Below are positions 282 to 14,777 of a stretch of 15,478 nt of DNA, piece by piece. Position 1 is the first letter of the stretch, and every line of letters starts with the position of its first letter. A program made the translations under genes and the position numbers. Origin of the DNA: Escherichia coli (GTDB taxonomy: Bacteria; Pseudomonadota; Gammaproteobacteria; Enterobacterales; Enterobacteriaceae); the NCBI RefSeq assembly GCF_003334815.1, contig NZ_QOWO01000055.1; one strand, written 5' to 3'. The notes beneath the pieces were generated by a model that saw nothing but the letters and a program-made list of their open reading frames with translations, ran no database searches and was not told the origin of the DNA.

Positions 282-1739
282 CCGCACTCTTGACATAAGA
301 GTGCGGTCCGTGGAAAACGGAGTTGAAAAAATGGTGTCTGAAAGAAGGTACCATCATTGCGATGACAAACACTTTGGCGTGGATAATGTAATTAATTGCT
401 GAAATTGACCGTATATGCGGTAAGACTCATATCAGTATCAGGTCCGGTTAATTGCTGATACTGACATAAACTTTTTACAAAAGGATGAATGCAGAAGGTT
501 ACTCTAATGGCCAGAGTGATGACAATGATGGTCAGACGTTGACCTGCAGAAACTGCATTTTAATTGGTCTATAAAGTCTGCAAGAGGAATCAGGGCCAGA
601 TCAGTGAGTCTTATCGCGGCCCGAAGCTATGACTGAAAGAAGGCTGGATACAGAATTGCAACAATTTGGCAATGTCAGAACACAGAAGCTTTGCAAGCAG
701 GTGAAAGGTTATGTCTAGCAAAAGGAGTATATCAGAATACATCTACTGATGTACAAAACACAACAATAGCTTCATGATATATAAATACGTGATGACGAGT
801 GGTACTCCGCATGGTTATTTAACTTCTCAGCACCACTAATGATCCTGAGCAACTTCGTATTTGGGCCATTGCCATGGAGTAGAAAGCTGTGTCTGAGAAT
901 GCAGAATTTGAGAAAAGAATTCGCTTTCTTGGAGAGCTTCTGAAAATGGCACGCTAACAACGTTTTGTTAAAAAATGTGAATCACTTGCCGAGGCTGCAT
1001 TTTCTATTCGAGGAGAATGTTGACGTAGATATTACAGAAATCTCAGCGCATCAGGATAAACTGCTACCTTAGGTCAACCACCAAAAGAAAATACAATACG
1101 TCCAGTTTGTATGCCTTTAATAACACATCTTTTAAATGTTGAAGAATTATCCCGCCTGCTGAAGAACGTTGCTCTGAGTGTGATAAACCTTTTTATTCTT
1201 GATGATGTCAGCGAGAAGATGGAATATATCCCCGACTGGGTCGTGGTTACCCGGTTAAACATCTGGTGGCGCTAATAAATCTGGCAAGTCACATTCTGTT
1301 GAATGCTGTGACAGTGCCTTACCGAGAGAGCGAAATTGTGGTGTTCTAGTGCATAGTCGCCACCATTCCGGATAATTCTATTGCGTTGTTTTACAAGTTC
1401 TTTTACAGCGCAGATCTGTCGTTGACGTTGAATCAATAGCCTGGATTTCAGAACACAATGCCCGTTTGCTGGTTGGTCCGGCAGTAGCATTAATTCATTA
1501 TCTGAATGAAATGTGTCAATCCACAGAAACCGCTGTCAATGACGCATTTTGTCGGACGTTAACACGAGGAAGTCTGGCTATTCCACAATGCCATCTTCTT
1601 TCGTAATGGATTGAGAATGCTGGATTTTTAATTATATTACGCGCAGTATTGATCGTGTAAATGTTTTGCGGTCAGCAATGGTGGGGGATCCATTGTTCTG
1701 TTCAATGAATACCATCATACAATTGAATCAGGAGTCGGT

Positions 1740-2285
1740 ATGATGATTTTGGTGACGGGGGGCGCACGGAGCGGGAAGAGTCGCCACGCAGAGGCGCTTA
1801 TTGGGGACTCTTCACAGGTTCTGTATATCGCCACCTCGCAAATCCTTGATGACGAGATGGCTGCACGGATAGAACATCATCGGCAAGGCCGTCCGGCGCA
1901 CTGGCGCACGGTGGAGCGTTGGCAACATCTTGATGAATTAATTCATGCAGACATTAACCCGCATGAAGCTGTGTTGCTGGAATGCGTTACCACAATGGTG
2001 ACTAATCTGTTGTTTGATTATGGCGGCGATAAAGACCCTGATGAATGGGATTATCAGGCGATGGAACAGGCGATTAATGCTGAGATTCAGTCGTTGATTG
2101 CTGCCTGCCAACGTTGCCCCGCAAAGGTTGTATTAGTGACTAACGAAGTGGGAATGGGGATTGTGCCGGAGAGTCGTCTGGCACGACATTTTCGTGATAT
2201 TGCCGGGCGGGTAAATCAGCAGCTGGCCGCTGCGGCAAATGAAGTATGGCTGGTGGTTTCGGGTATTGGAGTAAAAATCAAATGA
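1740..2285 (+). CDS. cobU: Adenosylcobinamide kinase / adenosylcobinamide-phosphate guanylyltransferase CobU
   Basis: 181-aa ORF with P-loop GGARSGKS near the N-terminus; sequence and length match E. coli CobU as remembered; first gene of a cobU-cobS-cobT cluster. Confidence 0.95.
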
Positions 2286-3025
2286 GTAAATTATTTTGGG
2301 CGATGCTCTCATTTATTACGCGTCTGCCTGTACCGCGTCGCTGGTCCCAGGGACTGGATTTCGAGCATTATTCTCGCGGTATTATTACTTTTCCTTTAAT
2401 TGGATTATTGCTTGGCGCGATTAGCGGGCTGGTCTTCATGGTGCTGCAGGCATGGTGTGGCGTACCACTGGCGGCACTGTTTAGCGTACTTGTGCTGGCG
2501 CTGATGACCGGGGGATTCCACCTAGACGGCCTCGCCGATACCTGTGATGGCGTATTTTCTGCACGTAGCCGCGATCGCATGTTGGAAATCATGCGTGATA
2601 GCCGTTTAGGCACCCATGGCGGTCTGGCATTGATTTTTGTTGTACTGGCAAAGATTCTGGTATTAAGCGAGTTGGCTCTGCGTGGCGAACCGATCCTTGC
2701 ATCGCTGGCGGCAGCATGTGCGGTCAGCCGCGGGACTGCCGCATTATTGATGTATCGTCATCGTTATGCCCGGGAAGAAGGGCTTGGCAATGTGTTCATT
2801 GGCAAAATTGATGGGCGACAAACCTGCGTCACACTCGGCTTAGCCGCTATTTTTGCTGCCGTATTATTGCCAGGTATGCATGGTGTGGCTGCTATGGTGG
2901 TGACGATGGTGGCGATTTTCATCCTCGGTCAGCTTCTCAAACGTACGCTGGGCGGGCAAACCGGCGATACGCTGGGAGCTGCTATAGAGCTTGGTGAACT
3001 GGTCTTCCTGCTGGCACTGCTATAA
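2282..3025 (+). CDS. cobS: Adenosylcobinamide-GDP ribazoletransferase (cobalamin synthase) CobS
   Basis: Polytopic membrane protein. Start chosen at ATG 2282 ([11 protein letters not shown]...), giving 247 aa, rather than the ORF-track start at 2246; the ATG overlaps the cobU stop (ATGA at 2282-2285). Confidence 0.93.
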
Positions 3026-3036
3026 AGAGACGTGAC

Positions 3037-4116
3037 ATGCAAACACTTGCCGATTTACTGAATACGATCCCTGCTATCGATCCTGCCGCTATGTCGCGTG
3101 CACAACGGCATATTGACGGGTTACTCAAACCTGTTGGTAGCCTGGGAAGGCTGGAGGCGCTTGCCATACAACTGGCGGGAATGCCGGGGTTGAATGGCAT
3201 ACCGCATGTGGGCAAAAAAGCGGTACTGGTTATGTGTGCCGATCACGGCGTCTGGGAGGAAGGGGTCGCTATTTCCCCAAAAGAAGTGACAGCCATTCAG
3301 GCTGAAAATATGACCCGCGGAACAACCGGCGTGTGTGTGCTGGCAGCACAAGCGGGCGCTAACGTCCACGTAGTTGATGTTGGTATTGATAGTGCTGAGC
3401 CTATCCCCGGGCTTATCAACATGCGTGTCGCACGAGGTAGCGGCAATATTGCTTCAGCTCCGGCAATGAGTCGCCGTCAGGCTGAAAAGTTGCTTTTGGA
3501 CGTCATATGTTATACGCGGGAGCTGGCAAAAAACGGTGTCACGCTGTTTGGTGTAGGTGAACTGGGGATGGCAAACACGACACCGGCAGCGGCAATAGTC
3601 AGCACAATCACTGGCCGGGATCCTGAAGAAGTGGTTGGGATTGGCGCAAACCTGCCGACAGATAAACTGGCTAATAAAATTGATGTTGTGCGCCGGGCGA
3701 TTACGTTGAATCAACCAAATCCGCAGGATGGCGTTGATGTTCTGGCAAAAGTGGGGGGATTTGATTTGGTCGGAATGGCTGGCGTGATGTTAGGCGCTGC
3801 TTCCTGCGGTTTACCCGTGTTGCTGGATGGATTTCTTTCTTATGCTGCTGCGCTCGCAGCCTGCCAGATGTCTCCTGCAATCAAACCGTATCTCATTCCT
3901 TCTCACCTGTCGGCAGAAAAAGGGGCGCGTATAGCGCTGTCGCATTTGGGGCTGGAGCCTTATCTCAATATGGAGATGCGTTTAGGTGAGGGGAGTGGCG
4001 CAGCTCTGGCGATGCCCATCATCGAAGCTGCCTGTGCGATATATAACAACATGGGCGAACTTGCTGCCAGTAATATTGTTCTACCGGGGAATACGACTTC
4101 TGATTTGAACAGTTAA
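3037..4116 (+). CDS. cobT: Nicotinate-nucleotide--dimethylbenzimidazole phosphoribosyltransferase CobT
   Basis: 359-aa ORF ([40 protein letters not shown]...), 11 bp downstream of cobS; matches E. coli CobT as remembered. Confidence 0.95.
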
Positions 4117-4177
4117 AAACGAAAAGTCTGATAAAAGCTATACTTAACGGATAGCTTTCGCGACATAGGAAAGGGAC

Positions 4178-5113
4178 ATGATGCGTCGTGTAAATATTCT
4201 TTGCTCATTTGCTCTGCTTTTTGCCAGCCATACTAGCCTGGCGGTAACTTATCCATTACCTCCAGAGGGTAGCCGTTTGGTGGGGCAGTCGCTTACTGTA
4301 ACTGTTCCTGATCACAATACCCAGCCGCTGGAGACTTTTGCCGCACAATACGGGCAAGGGTTAAGTAACATGCTGGAAGCGAATCCGGGCGCTGATGTTT
4401 TCTTGCCGAAGTCTGGCTCGCAACTCACCATTCCGCAGCAACTGATTTTGCCCGCCACTGTTCGTAAAGGGATTGTGGTTAACGTCGCTGAGATGCGTCT
4501 TTATTACTACCCGCCAGACAGTAATACTGTGGAAGTCTTTCCTATTGGTATCGGCCAGGCTGGGCGAGAAACCCCGCGTAACTGGGTGACTACCGTTGAA
4601 CGTAAACAAGAAGCTCCAACCTGGACGCCAACGCCGAACACTCGGCGCGAATATGCGAAACGAGGGGAGAGTTTGCCCGCATTTGTTCCTGCGGGGCCCG
4701 ATAATCCCATGGGGCTGTACGCGATTTATATTGGCAGGTTGTATGCCATCCACGGTACCAATGCCAATTTTGGTATTGGACTTCGGGTAAGTCAGGGCTG
4801 TATTCGTCTGCGCAATGACGATATCAAATATCTGTTTGATAATGTTCCTGTTGGAACGCGTGTGCAAATTATCGACCAGCCAGTAAAATACACCACTGAA
4901 CCAGATGGCTCGAACTGGCTGGAAGTTCATGAGCCGCTGTCGCGCAATCGTGCAGAATATGAGTCTGACCGAAAAGTGCCATTGCCGGTAACCCCATCTT
5001 TGCGGGCGTTTATCAACGGGCAAGAAGTTGATGTGAATCGCGCAAAAGCTGCGTTGCAACGTCGATCGGGAATGCCTGTGCAAATTAGTTCTGGTTCAAG
5101 ACAGATGTTTTAA
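4178..5113 (+). CDS. ldtA: L,D-transpeptidase LdtA (ErfK), YkuD-domain periplasmic protein
   Basis: ORF with N-terminal signal peptide ([22 protein letters not shown]) and L,D-transpeptidase catalytic region (HGT...SQGCIRL). Tandem ATGs at 4178 and 4181; K-12 ErfK is 310 aa, which fits a start at 4181. RBS AGGAAAGGGA at 4167-4176. Confidence 0.9.
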
Positions 5114-5168: not shown

Positions 5169-5244
5169 TGGCTCCTCTGACTGGACTCGAACCAGTGACA
5201 TACGGATTAACAGTCCGCCGTTCTACCGACTGAACTACAGAGGA
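5169..5244 (-). tRNA. asnV: tRNA-Asn (anticodon GUU)
   Basis: Reverse complement is TCCTCTGTAGTTCAGTCGGTAGAACGGCGGACTGTTAATCCGTATGTCACTGGTTCGAGTCCAGTCAGAGGAGCCA, 76 nt with encoded CCA and anticodon loop CTGTTAA. Gene name assigned by synteny (between nac and erfK in K-12). Confidence 0.96.
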
Positions 5245-7576: not shown

Positions 7577-7652
7577 TGGCTCCTCTGACTGGACTCGAAC
7601 CAGTGACATACGGATTAACAGTCCGCCGTTCTACCGACTGAACTACAGAGGA
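7577..7652 (-). tRNA. asnU: tRNA-Asn (anticodon GUU)
   Basis: Identical 76-nt sequence to the other two tRNA-Asn copies (reverse complement of 7577-7652). Name by synteny (between cbl and yeeO). Confidence 0.96.
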
Positions 7653-7812: not shown

Positions 7813-9300
7813 ATGTGGTTTCACTTTCTGCAATTAAGGTCGGCTTTGAATATCTCCTCTGCTTTACGCCAGGTTGTTCACGGCACTCGCTGGCACGCTA
7901 AACGCAAGAGCTACAAAGTGTTGTTCTGGCGCGAGATAACCCCGCTTGCTGTTCCTATCTTCATGGAGAATGCCTGTGTCCTGTTGATGGGTGTCCTGAG
8001 CACTTTTCTGGTCAGCTGGCTGGGAAAAGATGCGATGGCCGGCGTGGGATTGGCGGACAGCTTCAATATGGTCATTATGGCTTTTTTTGCTGCTATCGAT
8101 CTTGGTACTACTGTCGTTGTGGCATTTAGTCTCGGTAAGCGGGATCGACGACGAGCGAGGGTGGCGACGCGGCAGTCATTGGTGATCATGACGTTGTTTG
8201 CCGTACTGTTGGCAACGCTTATTCATCATTTTGGCGAACAAATTATTGATTTCGTCGCGGGTGATGCCACGACAGAAGTTAAAGCACTGGCGTTGACTTA
8301 TCTGGAGCTGACGGTACTCAGTTATCCAGCAGTTGCCATCACTTTGATTGGTAGCGGGGCACTTCGTGGTGCAGGGAATACGAAAATACCGCTACTGATT
8401 AACGGTAGCCTGAATATTCTTAATATTATTATTAGCGGCATATTGATTTACGGCCTTTTCTCCTGGCCGGGACTGGGATTTGTCGGGGCAGGGCTGGGTT
8501 TAACCATTTCTCGTTATATTGGCGCAGTTGCAATTTTGTGGGTGCTGGCGATTGGTTTTAATCCTGCGCTAAGGATTTCGTTAAAGAGCTATTTTAAACC
8601 GCTGAATTTTAGCATTATCTGGGAAGTCATGGGGATTGGTATTCCCGCTAGTGTCGAATCAGTGTTATTTACCAGTGGTCGGTTATTAACCCAAATGTTC
8701 GTTGCCGGGATGGGGACCAGTGTTATTGCCGGAAATTTTATCGCGTTTTCAATTGCGGCTCTTATCAACTTACCCGGAAGTGCGCTCGGCTCTGCTTCTA
8801 CGATCATTACAGGCCGAAGGTTGGGGGTAGGGCAGATAGCGCAAGCAGAGATTCAGTTGCGGCATGTGTTCTGGCTGTCCACTCTTGGATTAACGGCCAT
8901 CGCCTGGCTAACGGCTCCCTTTGCCGGGCTTATGGCATCGTTTTACACCCAGGATCCACAGGTTAAACATGTCGTTGTGATTCTGATTTGGCTAAATGCT
9001 TTATTTATGCCTATTTGGTCCGCCTCATGGGTGCTACCCGCTGGATTTAAAGGTGCTCGTGATGCCCGTTACGCCATGTGGGTTTCGATGTTGAGCATGT
9101 GGGGTTGTCGGGTTGTCGTCGGTTATGTGCTGGGAATCATGCTTGGCTGGGGTGTGGTTGGTGTCTGGATGGGAATGTTTGCCGACTGGGCTGTGCGGGC
9201 TGTGCTGTTTTACTGGCGAATGGTTACTGGACGTTGGCTATGGAAATACCCTCGACCCGAGCCGCAAAAGTGTGAAAAAAAGCCAGTTGTGTCGGAATAA
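7813..9300 (+). CDS. yeeO: MATE-family efflux transporter YeeO (reported flavin/dipeptide exporter)
   Basis: Start placed at ATG 7813 (MWFHFLQLRSALNISSALRQ...), giving 495 aa with multiple hydrophobic transmembrane segments. The ORF-track 546-aa version starts at TTG 7660 and runs through the asnU promoter. Confidence 0.88.
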   Translation: MWFHFLQLRSALNISSALRQVVHGTRWHAKRKSYKVLFWREITPLAVPIFMENACVLLMGVLSTFLVSWLGKDAMAGVGLADSFNMVIMAFFAAIDLGTTVVVAFSLGKRDRRRARVATRQSLVIMTLFAVLLATLIHHFGEQIIDFVAGDATTEVKALALTYLELTVLSYPAVAITLIGSGALRGAGNTKIPLLINGSLNILNIIISGILIYGLFSWPGLGFVGAGLGLTISRYIGAVAILWVLAIGFNPALRISLKSYFKPLNFSIIWEVMGIGIPASVESVLFTSGRLLTQMFVAGMGTSVIAGNFIAFSIAALINLPGSALGSASTIITGRRLGVGQIAQAEIQLRHVFWLSTLGLTAIAWLTAPFAGLMASFYTQDPQVKHVVVILIWLNALFMPIWSASWVLPAGFKGARDARYAMWVSMLSMWGCRVVVGYVLGIMLGWGVVGVWMGMFADWAVRAVLFYWRMVTGRWLWKYPRPEPQKCEKKPVVSE

Positions 9301-9400: not shown

Positions 9401-9476
9401 TCCTCTGTAGTTCAGTCGGTAGAACGGCGGACTGTTAATCCGTATGTCACTGGTTCGAGTCCAGTCAGAGGAGCCA
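9401..9476 (+). tRNA. asnW: tRNA-Asn (anticodon GUU)
   Basis: TCCTCTGTAGTTCAGTCGGTAGAACGGCGGACTGTTAATCCGTATGTCACTGGTTCGAGTCCAGTCAGAGGAGCCA. Name by synteny (between yeeO and yeeN). Confidence 0.96.
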
Positions 9477-9574: not shown

Positions 9575-9888
9575 ATTTCTGTGTTTCGTGCGCTTAATCG
9601 AGTCTCACGCTTCAGTGAGCAAGTTGCCCCCCAACAGACATCACGATTCGCAAGGTCAAAAACTCTGTTCCATGAAGTACCGTACAAAGATAAAGAGAAA
9701 AATGCCTTATGCGGGATGTCGCTATCGCGTCTTTATCGGGAAACTATGCGTAATTGCCACTTTGCCTTCTGTAATCAGAAAAAGAAGAACTGGAATTTTA
9801 ATAAATATTATTTCTCTGGGAACGGGGATTTTTTATAATCAATATGACGAGTTGAACATTATATTTTTTATAAGGGTTATATGAGATT

Positions 9889-9919
9889 AAAGAAATCTGC
9901 CGTAAAGACAGATTTCTTT
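9889..9919 (-). terminator. Stem-loop downstream of yeeN (putative terminator)
   Basis: 11-bp perfect inverted repeat AAAGAAATCTG / CAGATTTCTTT with a 9-nt loop, 10 bp past the yeeN stop; the flanking U-tract on the minus strand is weak. Confidence 0.4.
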
Positions 9920-9928
9920 AAAATATAA

Positions 9929-10645
9929 TTAGAGATTTGCGACGTTATGATAAACTTTTTGTACATCGTCGTCATCTTCAAGGGCATCAACAAGCCCTTC
10001 AAAGATTTCTAAATCTTCTGGGGAAAGCTCAACTTCAGATTGCGCAATCATTTCTAATTCTGTTGTTGAGAACTCAGTGATTCCAGCTGCTTTTAGAGCC
10101 GCGATTCCTTTATGAAGGTCAGTAGGTTCGGTATAAATAACAATGTTACCTTCTTCTTCAGTCACATCACGAACATCAACTTCAGCTTCAAGTAAAATTT
10201 CAAAAATATGGTCAGGGTCTGATCCTTTAAATACAATCACACCCGTATTGTCAAACATATAGCTGACAGAACCTGCCGCTCCGATATTGCCGCCTTTTTT
10301 ATTGAAAATTGTGCGAACGTTAGCAATCGTACGGTTAACATTTGAAGTCAATGTCTCGGCGATAATCATTGAGCCATTAGGACCAAAGCCTTCATAACGG
10401 CCCTGCACGAACGTTTCATCTCCGCCGCCTTTGGCTTTATCAATTGCTTTATCAATAACGTGCTTTGGAACTTGTGCCTGCTTTGCACGTTCAATAACGA
10501 ATTTTAAAGATGTGTTTAATTCTGGATCGGGTTCACCTTGTTTAGCAGCAGCATAGATTTCTACACCGAATTTTGCATAAATTTTAGACGTTGCACCGTC
10601 TTTAGCCGTTTTTTTAGCAACAATATTGGCCCATTTACGTCCCAC
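9929..10645 (-). CDS. yeeN: YebC/PmpR-family transcriptional regulatory protein YeeN
   Basis: 238-aa ORF ([31 protein letters not shown]...), characteristic YebC-family N-terminus; matches E. coli YeeN in length. Confidence 0.92.
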
Positions 10646-10987
10646 TGGAATGATCTCCTCGAAAATTTATTTACATTACTGGTAAATCGTTAACATGTGT
10701 TAAATCAGCATATTATATCATAACAGGAAAAATCTCGTCTATTAGAAATAAAAATATTCTAAAGCCATAATCTTATATTTTGTTTTATAAAAACTAATGT
10801 TGTTGGCGGGATTTTTTATAATTATATTTTGAAAGCATACATGCTTTTAATATGCGGAAATCATTAAGACGATAATGAAACTCGCATCTGCCCAAGGAAG
10901 CAAACAGCCCGCGTTGATTGCAGGCTATTTGCCAGATGTCTTACTTAATCCTTCACATCTATTTCTGATGAGAAGGTTCAGAACTTA

Positions 10988-13860: not shown

Positions 13861-14174
13861 AATGATCCTGTTTGTACTGTCTTTTTATAATTAGTATGGA
13901 AAAGGTAACTCACATTGCCGTCGATCTATAAACGAACCTTATGAGACTACCTCGACAGAGCGCATCTGCAAATGATTTTATGGCTGATTAGCGGCAACAT
14001 GAAAAATTCGATGGAAGATGAAAGCGCAGGAGTTGCTGGTGTTGTTTAAGGATTAAGCAGAGGACCCACAGGTTAGAGATATGAAACATAAAAGTCCGCA
14101 TATGCACAAAATGGCACCCTGATGAGTCTGATAGACTGCATTGCATTATAACCAGTAGGGAGGCGAGGTTAGGT

Positions 14175-14777
14175 ATGTTTTTAGCATCATTGTTGAGACG
14201 TATTGCATTTAGTTACTACGATTATAAAGCTTATAATTTCAATATTGAAAAAACAGACTTTGTTGTCATCCATATTCCCGATCAGATTGGCGATGCTATG
14301 GCCATCTTTCCTGTTATTCGGGCGCTTGAATTGCATAAAATTAAGCATCTATTAATTGTTACGTCGACAATTAATTTAGAAGTCTTTAATGCGCTCAAAC
14401 TTGAACTGACTAAATTAACATTAGTTACAATGACTATGCAGGATCACGCAACATTAAAAGAAATAAAAAATTTAGCGAAGAACATAACACTGCAATACGG
14501 TACGCCGGATCTTTGTATAGAGGCGATGCGTAAAAAGAACCTGAAAACGATGATATTTATCAGTCAGTTGAAAGCAAAAACGAATTTTCAGGTTGTTGGT
14601 ATAACCATGAATTGCTTCTCCCCTTTGTGCAAGAACGCGTCCCGTATGGATCAGAAACTCCGGGCTCCCGTACCTATGACATGGGCATTTATGATGCGTG
14701 AGGCGGGTTTTCCAGCAGTCAGGCCAATATATGAATTGAATCGCCACGGGTTTAACAGACACCTCAGAGTCATTTAA
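14175..14777 (+). pseudogene. yeeL: yeeL-like putative glycosyltransferase (family 9 heptosyltransferase-like N-terminal region), 3'-truncated remnant
   Basis: The 200-aa ORF has an N-terminal pattern resembling GT9 heptosyltransferases (VVIHIPDQIGDAMAIFPVIRALE) but is far shorter than the ~320-350 aa typical for the family. AT-rich body until about 14600, then a GC-richer tail that runs into the IS3-family element. Position divergent from shiA matches K-12 yeeL, which is a pseudogene there. Confidence 0.5.

Follow-up and report, generated by a model that had tools for sequence, protein, structure and literature searches.

Truncated insertion sequences and a cbiG remnant adjoining cobU in Escherichia coli

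The native part of the region analyzed here can be compared with the cobalamin locus of Salmonella. The Salmonella reference used for comparison carries the complete pdu-pocR-cbiA...P-cobUST locus. In Salmonella and Escherichia, pduF, pocR, the leader, the cob genes and ldtA are found in the same flanking order, and the encoded proteins are similar, i.e. CobU displays 83% identity and PocR 88% over the compared part. However, of the 17 cbi genes of Salmonella, Escherichia retains only codons 1 to approximately 137 of cbiG, and the E. coli sequence described here retains only about the last 57 codons of its remnant, without pocR and without the riboswitch. The remaining part of the region is related to known insertion sequences. 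ISEc11, an IS1111-type element, has an essential non-coding region 3′ of its transposase gene which encodes a seekRNA and is a hallmark of the IS1111 type (PMC11187229). IS66 elements have the gene order tnpA-tnpB-tnpC. In the E. coli K-12 record, the corresponding region contains the pseudogenes yoeH, yoeG and yeeH, which are listed without a product, and the stump of cbiG (termed cbiG′) is not annotated. Literature searches on yoeG, yoeH and yeeH yield passing mentions only, and searches on cobUST, cbiG and pocR in E. coli show nothing on a cbiG relic.

The window is a stretch of 15,478 nucleotides from E. coli (assembly GCF_003334815.1, contig NZ_QOWO01000055.1). Window features are on the plus strand unless stated otherwise. 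Positions 282–1739 are limited on the left by the right end of an IS3 element (positions 1–281, from PGAP annotation of sequence-identical genomes) and on the right by an intact cobU open reading frame of 181 aa (positions 1740–2285), which is annotated as cobU in identical genomes. The region between these limits is very probably debris without function, located at that end of the island annotated as CP4-44 in K-12 which is nearer to cobU. It consists of the tail of an IS110/IS1111-type transposase gene, the head of an IS66 tnpC gene, a slice of an IS4 transposase gene and the cbiG′ stump. All of the fragments are co-oriented on the cobU strand, and each is truncated and displays stop codons or frameshifts. 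A preliminary description of the region, made from the sequence alone, had proposed a gene or genes eroded by stops and frameshifts. The decay is supported here, and the proposal is refined in that there are four juxtaposed fragments, from IS110/IS1111, IS66, IS4 and cbiG, and not a single gene.

The GC content of 282–1739 is 41.4%, versus 49.5% in the IS3 end, 51.5% in cobU, 53.0% in cobS and 52.7% in cobT. The region had been judged AT-rich by eye, and the computed difference from the 51–53% of cobUST agrees with this. The longest plus-strand open reading frames are 54 aa (positions 1111–1275) and 46 aa (positions 1466–1606) in length. On the minus strand there are exactly three of at least 60 aa, at positions 772–960, 1074–1262 and 1272–1490, with chain lengths of 62–72 aa. 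The listing thus bears out the earlier statement that there is no plus-strand open reading frame of 60 aa or more and only three short ones on the minus strand. The longest stop-free run is 87 aa, and a run of this length or longer is found in 49% of 500 shuffled sequences. Since such a run is typical of shuffles, the region resembles non-coding sequence by its open reading frame content. A search of all six frames against NCBIfam gives a weak IS4 match and nothing else.

The sequence at positions 284–451 corresponds by tblastn to the C-terminus of an IS110/IS1111-family transposase, at approximately residues 285–337 of 340. The transposase of an intact IS110-family element on a plasmid matches the window over its C-terminal 53 or so residues (E-value = 2e-9), and the same protein displays 49% identity to the K-12 sequence (E-value = 1e-7). 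There are two in-frame stops ahead of the natural stop codon, which is at positions 449–451, and the catalytic N-terminal domain of the DEDD transposase is absent from the fragment. Downstream, positions 452–696 appear as a fossil of the 3′ non-coding region of the element, by DNA identity to the plasmid copy. Window positions 410–696 show 71% identity over 287 bp to positions 2127–2417 of the intact plasmid element (L005), which comprise the end of the transposase gene and about 250 bp of non-coding DNA downstream of it. The likeness to IS1111-type elements, e.g. ISEc11, is in the C-terminal transposase match and apparently also in the conserved stretch of about 250 bp of non-coding DNA beyond the stop codon. 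Identity of the fragment to genes of the ISEc11 family is approximately 45%–49% over about 53 aa. Unlike these elements, the window keeps the last 55 or so codons, with two internal stops, and the non-coding tail, and has neither a catalytic domain nor a left end.

Two inverted repeats with arms of 10 bp are found in this part of the region. The first had been reported in the preliminary description at 432–441 and 455–464, and it is exact (TCAGTATCAG and CTGATACTGA). It forms a stem at positions 432–464 around the stop codon of the IS110-type transposase. At least one repeat of this kind arises in 28 of 500 shuffled sequences (about 6%), and by itself the repeat is weak evidence. The stem is kept at the same position in the intact element on pCFSAN004181P, at 9 of 10 pairs. 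Because it is conserved in an intact copy, the repeat is an inherited feature of the insertion sequence and not a feature of this locus. The second repeat has its arms at 282–291 and 297–306 and is the remnant of a hairpin (positions 282–306, not assigned to a strand) at the 5′ truncation point of the fragment. K-12 has a full 17-bp perfect palindrome there, CCACGGACCGCACTCTT-GACAT-AAGAGTGCGGTCCGTGG, and in the window its left arm is cut by IS3. The K-12 palindrome (L003, approximately positions 8400–8440) is located exactly at the point where the IS110-type sequence is truncated, and it may record how the truncation arose.

Positions 811–1254 display similarity to the N-terminal residues 1–151 of the 513-residue IS66-family TnpC protein. 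The tblastn match has 47% identity over 152 aa (E-value = 2e-24), and IS66 genes on plasmids match the window at an E-value of 4e-18. The tnpC remnant carries four in-frame stops and two frameshifts. Its reading path runs from 811 to 999, continues in the next frame from 1001 to 1072 and then runs from 1090 to 1277. The possibility that the TnpC similarity extends beyond 1254, where VPYRES resembles an LPLYRQ-like sequence, was rejected since this stretch falls in the IS4 alignment. Upstream, positions 715–777 hold a tentative trace of the tnpB C-terminus, from tblastn and spacing. TnpB residues 107–124 match positions 715–768 at 50% identity, a weak similarity (E-value = 0.04). The trace ends 34 nt ahead of the tnpC start, compared with 43 nt in the intact element. 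Thus the fragment resembles IS66 elements in the alignment of TnpC residues 1–151 and in a putative tnpB end at about the expected spacing upstream. In contrast to a complete element, it ends before the DDE catalytic domain and has no tnpA, which was searched for in the window and not found; it is a dead fragment. Pfam searches with the stop-masked IS66 fragment and with protein P0009 gave no match.

Of the two protein-like runs quoted in the preliminary description as possible gene remnants, both are present, at positions 1135–1272 and 644–715. The first is a genuine remnant of IS66 TnpC. The second is probably not a protein remnant, because it falls in the 3′ non-coding part of that IS110-type element.

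An internal fragment of an IS4-family transposase, corresponding to residues 166–228 of 445, is at positions 1248–1436 and is detected by tblastn, NCBIfam and PGAP. It displays 73% aa identity (tblastn, E-value = 2e-24) and 77% DNA identity to the IS4 transposase of a plasmid, and a further plasmid match has an E-value of 9e-21. PGAP annotates the same positions in sequence-identical genomes as an "IS4 family transposase" pseudogene. The NCBIfam model NF033592 matches at an E-value of 6e-4, which falls well short of its curated cut-off, as no more than 63 residues are left. One in-frame stop is present. The protein match ends at 1436, and positions 1437–1443 are assigned to IS4 only because cbiG′ homology begins at 1444. 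An N-terminus of cbiG at 1350–1398 had been considered, based on the resemblance of TIPDNSIALF to KPESIALF of CbiG and on NCBIfam matches; this was ruled out by the 73% identity to IS4 across 1248–1436 and by the intact cbiG′ allele, which matches from 1444 only.

The IS4 sequence is also found in an E. coli contig that still has pdu, pocR and the riboswitch (L006). Positions 1853–1897 of this contig are identical to window positions 1399–1443. This is a 45-nt scar inside cbiG′ that matches IS4 residues 216–228. Since the scar coexists there with pdu, pocR and the riboswitch, IS4 would have entered cbiG′ while these were still in place.

Nothing in 282–1443 looks functional, because every gene piece is truncated and broken and there is no credible match to an RNA family. 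This part would therefore be debris without function, as judged from its sequence. The preliminary description had named an intact short gene or sRNA as something that could explain the region, and neither an intact small gene nor an Rfam RNA was found. The main alternative is that a small functional gene or RNA is hidden here, i.e. the 54-aa open reading frame at 1111–1275 or an RNA transcribed from the seekRNA fossil at 452–696. In its favor, PGAP annotates the open reading frame in some genomes, as the "hypothetical protein" WP_001128468.1, and a genomic-SELEX table (PMC3946193) gives a constitutive RpoD promoter ahead of yoeG. A motif search places a sigma-70 motif, TGTACA-17-CATGAT, at 750–778. 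Given the listed yoeG promoter, transcription may take place in part of the debris. The region is also highly conserved. It matches 5,404 of the 5,426 complete E. coli genomes, with identity of at least 95% in 4,563 records and of 90%–95% in 843 more, and 3,446 of the 5,426 have at least 80% query coverage in one place. Identity of 95%–100% in thousands of genomes is expected from shared ancestry, and does not alone exclude function. However, the 54-aa sequence falls entirely within the TnpC alignment, where it is the longest open stretch and forms the open tail of the dead tnpC, and it is left uncalled in sequence-identical genomes. As to an RNA, the Rfam scan of the window shows no family at the gathering score. 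The sole match at E ≤ 1 is to a plant snoRNA family (20.4 bits, E-value = 0.96), which is attributed to chance. There is no Rfam match either in the fossil 452–696 or in the intact IS110-type plasmid element. The predicted fold of 425–700 is no better than that of shuffled sequences (z = −0.21), and no more than 55 codons, interrupted by stops, are left of the IS110-type transposase by which a seekRNA would be used. A hidden gene or RNA is thus very unlikely.

The calling of WP_001128468.1 is itself inconsistent: PGAP calls the protein in one genome (L001) and not in another (L002), though the sequences are identical.

The sequences of the window and of K-12 MG1655 are collinear, with 99.2% identity for positions 281–1349 and 97.8% for positions 1346–2400. 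In K-12, IS5H is inserted at window positions 1346–1349. As the preliminary description had stated, cobU of K-12 adjoins IS5H and the annotated CP4-44 feature. Mapping of the MG1655 pseudogenes places yoeH (b4641) at window positions 284–442, yoeG (b4640) at 811–1343 and yeeH (b4639) at 1350–1436, all in the same orientation as in K-12. The three K-12 pseudogenes can thus be identified: yoeH is an IS110/IS1111-type tail, yoeG is the head of an IS66 tnpC and yeeH is a slice of IS4.

By coordinates, 282 to approximately 1484 is inside the K-12 feature "cryptic prophage CP4-44", and this placement invites the reading that the whole 1.4 kb represents one or two decayed prophage genes. The reading is highly improbable. 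All identifiable content of the island part is derived from insertion sequences, and every identifiable piece of the region as a whole is either of this origin or cob-derived. Four unrelated genes are joined at internal positions, and nothing phage-like is present among the pieces identified.

The debris reading places the acquired sequence next to native DNA, and the boundary between the two can be located. In about 843 E. coli genomes the island is missing, and yeeX/pduV′ directly adjoins cbiG′. In these island-free genomes, as well as in the intact cbiG′ allele, blastn homology to the window starts at position 1444. The acquired/native boundary is therefore at 1443/1444. The junctions were taken from blastn, as MAFFT mis-aligned the non-homologous left parts. 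The K-12 limit of CP4-44, at approximately window position 1484, by comparison extends the feature some 40 bp into native DNA. An island boundary at this side of cobU had been suggested in the preliminary description, and one is indeed present. Its further suggestion that the region is acquired DNA holds for 282–1443 and fails for 1444–1739, which is native cob-operon DNA common to island-free Escherichia genomes.

The native DNA begins with the 3′ part of cbiG′ at positions 1444–1606, approximately codons 89–145 (about 57 codons). Window positions 1444–1800 are 97.8% identical to positions 4267–4623 of an E. coli locus (L011), a stretch which begins in the tail of an intact cbiG′ open reading frame of 136 aa, and it is because of this DNA identity that the stump is assigned to cbiG. 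Salmonella CbiG shows no tblastn match to the window's own piece at E < 0.05. The intact Escherichia cbiG′ open reading frames match residues 1–137 of Salmonella CbiG with E-values of 3e-19 to 3e-25, and the NCBIfam model NF004463 (cobalt-precorrin-5A hydrolase) matches the less-decayed alleles. A full-length two-domain CbiG, as in Salmonella (351 aa), is not present; the best Escherichia alleles end at approximately residue 137–145. The PGAP annotation of sequence-identical genomes has a "cobalamin biosynthesis protein" pseudogene at 1445–1606. There is next to no likelihood that the fragment is instead the C-terminus of cbiP, which adjoins cobU directly in Salmonella and would fit a single deletion from cbiA through most of cbiP and the PGAP label "missing N-terminus", because CbiP gives no tblastn match in the window, L006, L007, L011 or L012, CbiG 1–137 is alone in matching among the 17 Salmonella Cbi proteins, and the NCBIfam matches are to cobalt-precorrin-5A hydrolase.

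Between the cbiG′ stump and cobU there is a native spacer (positions 1607–1739, from comparison with related loci), and its sequence hardly varies among the related loci, including L006 and L007. It contains a sigma-70 promoter motif for cobUST, TTGAGA-16-TATATT, at positions 1611–1638, with 10 of 12 matches, and a ribosome-binding site, AGGAG, at positions 1730–1734. The identical promoter motif is listed as a constitutive RpoD promoter of cobUST (PMC3946193). This promoter is likely the sole working part of the region, and we infer its activity in the present strain from the motif. A search with the Rfam covariance model of the cobalamin riboswitch (RF00174) shows no match anywhere in the window. 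The cobUST genes of this strain thus appear to lack the context of riboswitch and PocR, which is retained in some other E. coli.

The order pduF-pocR-leader-cbiG′ (136–144 aa)-cobUST-ldtA is found in E. albertii, E. marmotae, another Escherichia species and E. coli L011. The intact cbiG′ open reading frames, e.g. L011 4001–4411, L012 418–855 and, in L016, L017 and L018, 2501–2935, are located between pocR/riboswitch and cobU and form a family of 136–145 aa with members in E. coli, E. albertii, E. marmotae and other Escherichia. In the E. coli contig L006 there is a cobalamin riboswitch (113.8 bits) between pocR and cbiG′. The pduF-pocR-riboswitch arrangement is present in 646 of 5,426 complete E. 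coli genomes (about 12%). In the majority of E. coli, cobUST is thus run without this riboswitch, which persists in about 12% of strains.

When all 17 Salmonella Cbi proteins are used as tblastn queries, CbiG 1–137 alone can be traced in the intact Escherichia alleles, and no remnants of cbiA-F or cbiH-P are detected in the Escherichia loci. Because this is the only cbi trace, two genus-wide deletions appear to have cut the operon to cbiG′-cobUST. The cbiG relic beside cobU throughout Escherichia is direct evidence for the loss of cbi by deletion from a Salmonella-like operon. Sequence comparison establishes the ancestral Escherichia arrangement pduF-pocR-riboswitch-cbiG′-cobUST, together with the identities of the fragments and the 1443/1444 junction.

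In E. albertii L016 (positions 2935–4377) neither cobU nor cobT is called, and cbiG′ is followed by a gap of approximately 520 bp, then by cobS and then by ldtA. The cobU and cobT genes may be decayed in this strain.

The dN/dS ratio of cbiG′ is 0.30–0.47 between species and 0.81 within E. coli, versus 0.02–0.21 for pocR, cobU and cobS from the same loci. By this measure, constraint on cbiG′ is clearly relaxed, yet the open reading frame remains open in several species. Related to possible function, it is conceivable, though rather unlikely, that cbiG′ persists in the genus as a translated leader that relays riboswitch and PocR control to cobUST. This idea derives from the open reading frame staying open at 144–145 codons in E. 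albertii, E. marmotae, another Escherichia species and part of E. coli, in every case between the riboswitch and cobU, and from a dN/dS of 0.30–0.47 and not 1. It concerns the intact alleles and excludes the window's own cbiG′ copy, which is destroyed. If the leader reading were true, the insertion sequence debris of the window would mark a regulatory rewiring, by which cobUST in the majority of E. coli was uncoupled from B12 sensing and placed under a constitutive promoter.

With respect to the order of events, an Escherichia ancestor would have lost cbiA-F and the segment from mid-cbiG through cbiP, leaving pocR, the cobalamin riboswitch, cbiG′ (about 145 codons) and cobUST. In the lineage that led to the window, insertions of IS elements and later deletions may then have eliminated pdu and pocR together with the riboswitch and some 88 codons from the start of cbiG′. 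IS4 would have entered cbiG′ first, and the other insertion sequences, the internal deletions and the loss of pdu and pocR would have followed. The insertions of IS3 in this lineage and of IS5 in K-12 would be the latest events. The promoter at 1611–1638 would now drive cobUST without riboswitch or PocR input. The locus is an ordinary relic, already annotated and present in most E. coli. It is a textbook case of an island edge that gathers nested, truncated insertion sequences, and it carries little weight as a discovery.

K-12 has no IS3 at this location, and K-12 homology starts at window position 281. To the left of IS3, the DNA differs between L001 and L002, both of which are identical to the window on the right, and none of it matches the K-12 locus. 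Because the left flanks differ between two otherwise identical genomes, the comparison suggests a deletion or recombination mediated by IS3. The unrelated left-hand sequences of L001 (approximately position 2744) and L002 (approximately position 2788) contain IS100 and other transposases in one and a phosphotriesterase-related pseudogene in the other.

Two PLSDB records are also notable. NZ_CP126949.1, a 145-kb "plasmid", carries the region with cobU at 100% protein identity, and NZ_CP141089.1 (4.9 Mb) is evidently a chromosome despite its listing as a plasmid. Errors of assembly could account for these records, as could the capture of chromosomal DNA by a plasmid. Elsewhere in the window there are three tRNA-Asn (GTT) genes, at positions 5169–5244 (minus strand), 7577–7652 (minus strand) and 9401–9476 (plus strand), and two more low-GC patches (31%–39% GC) are present downstream of the cob genes, at positions 9750–10950 and 14000–14600.
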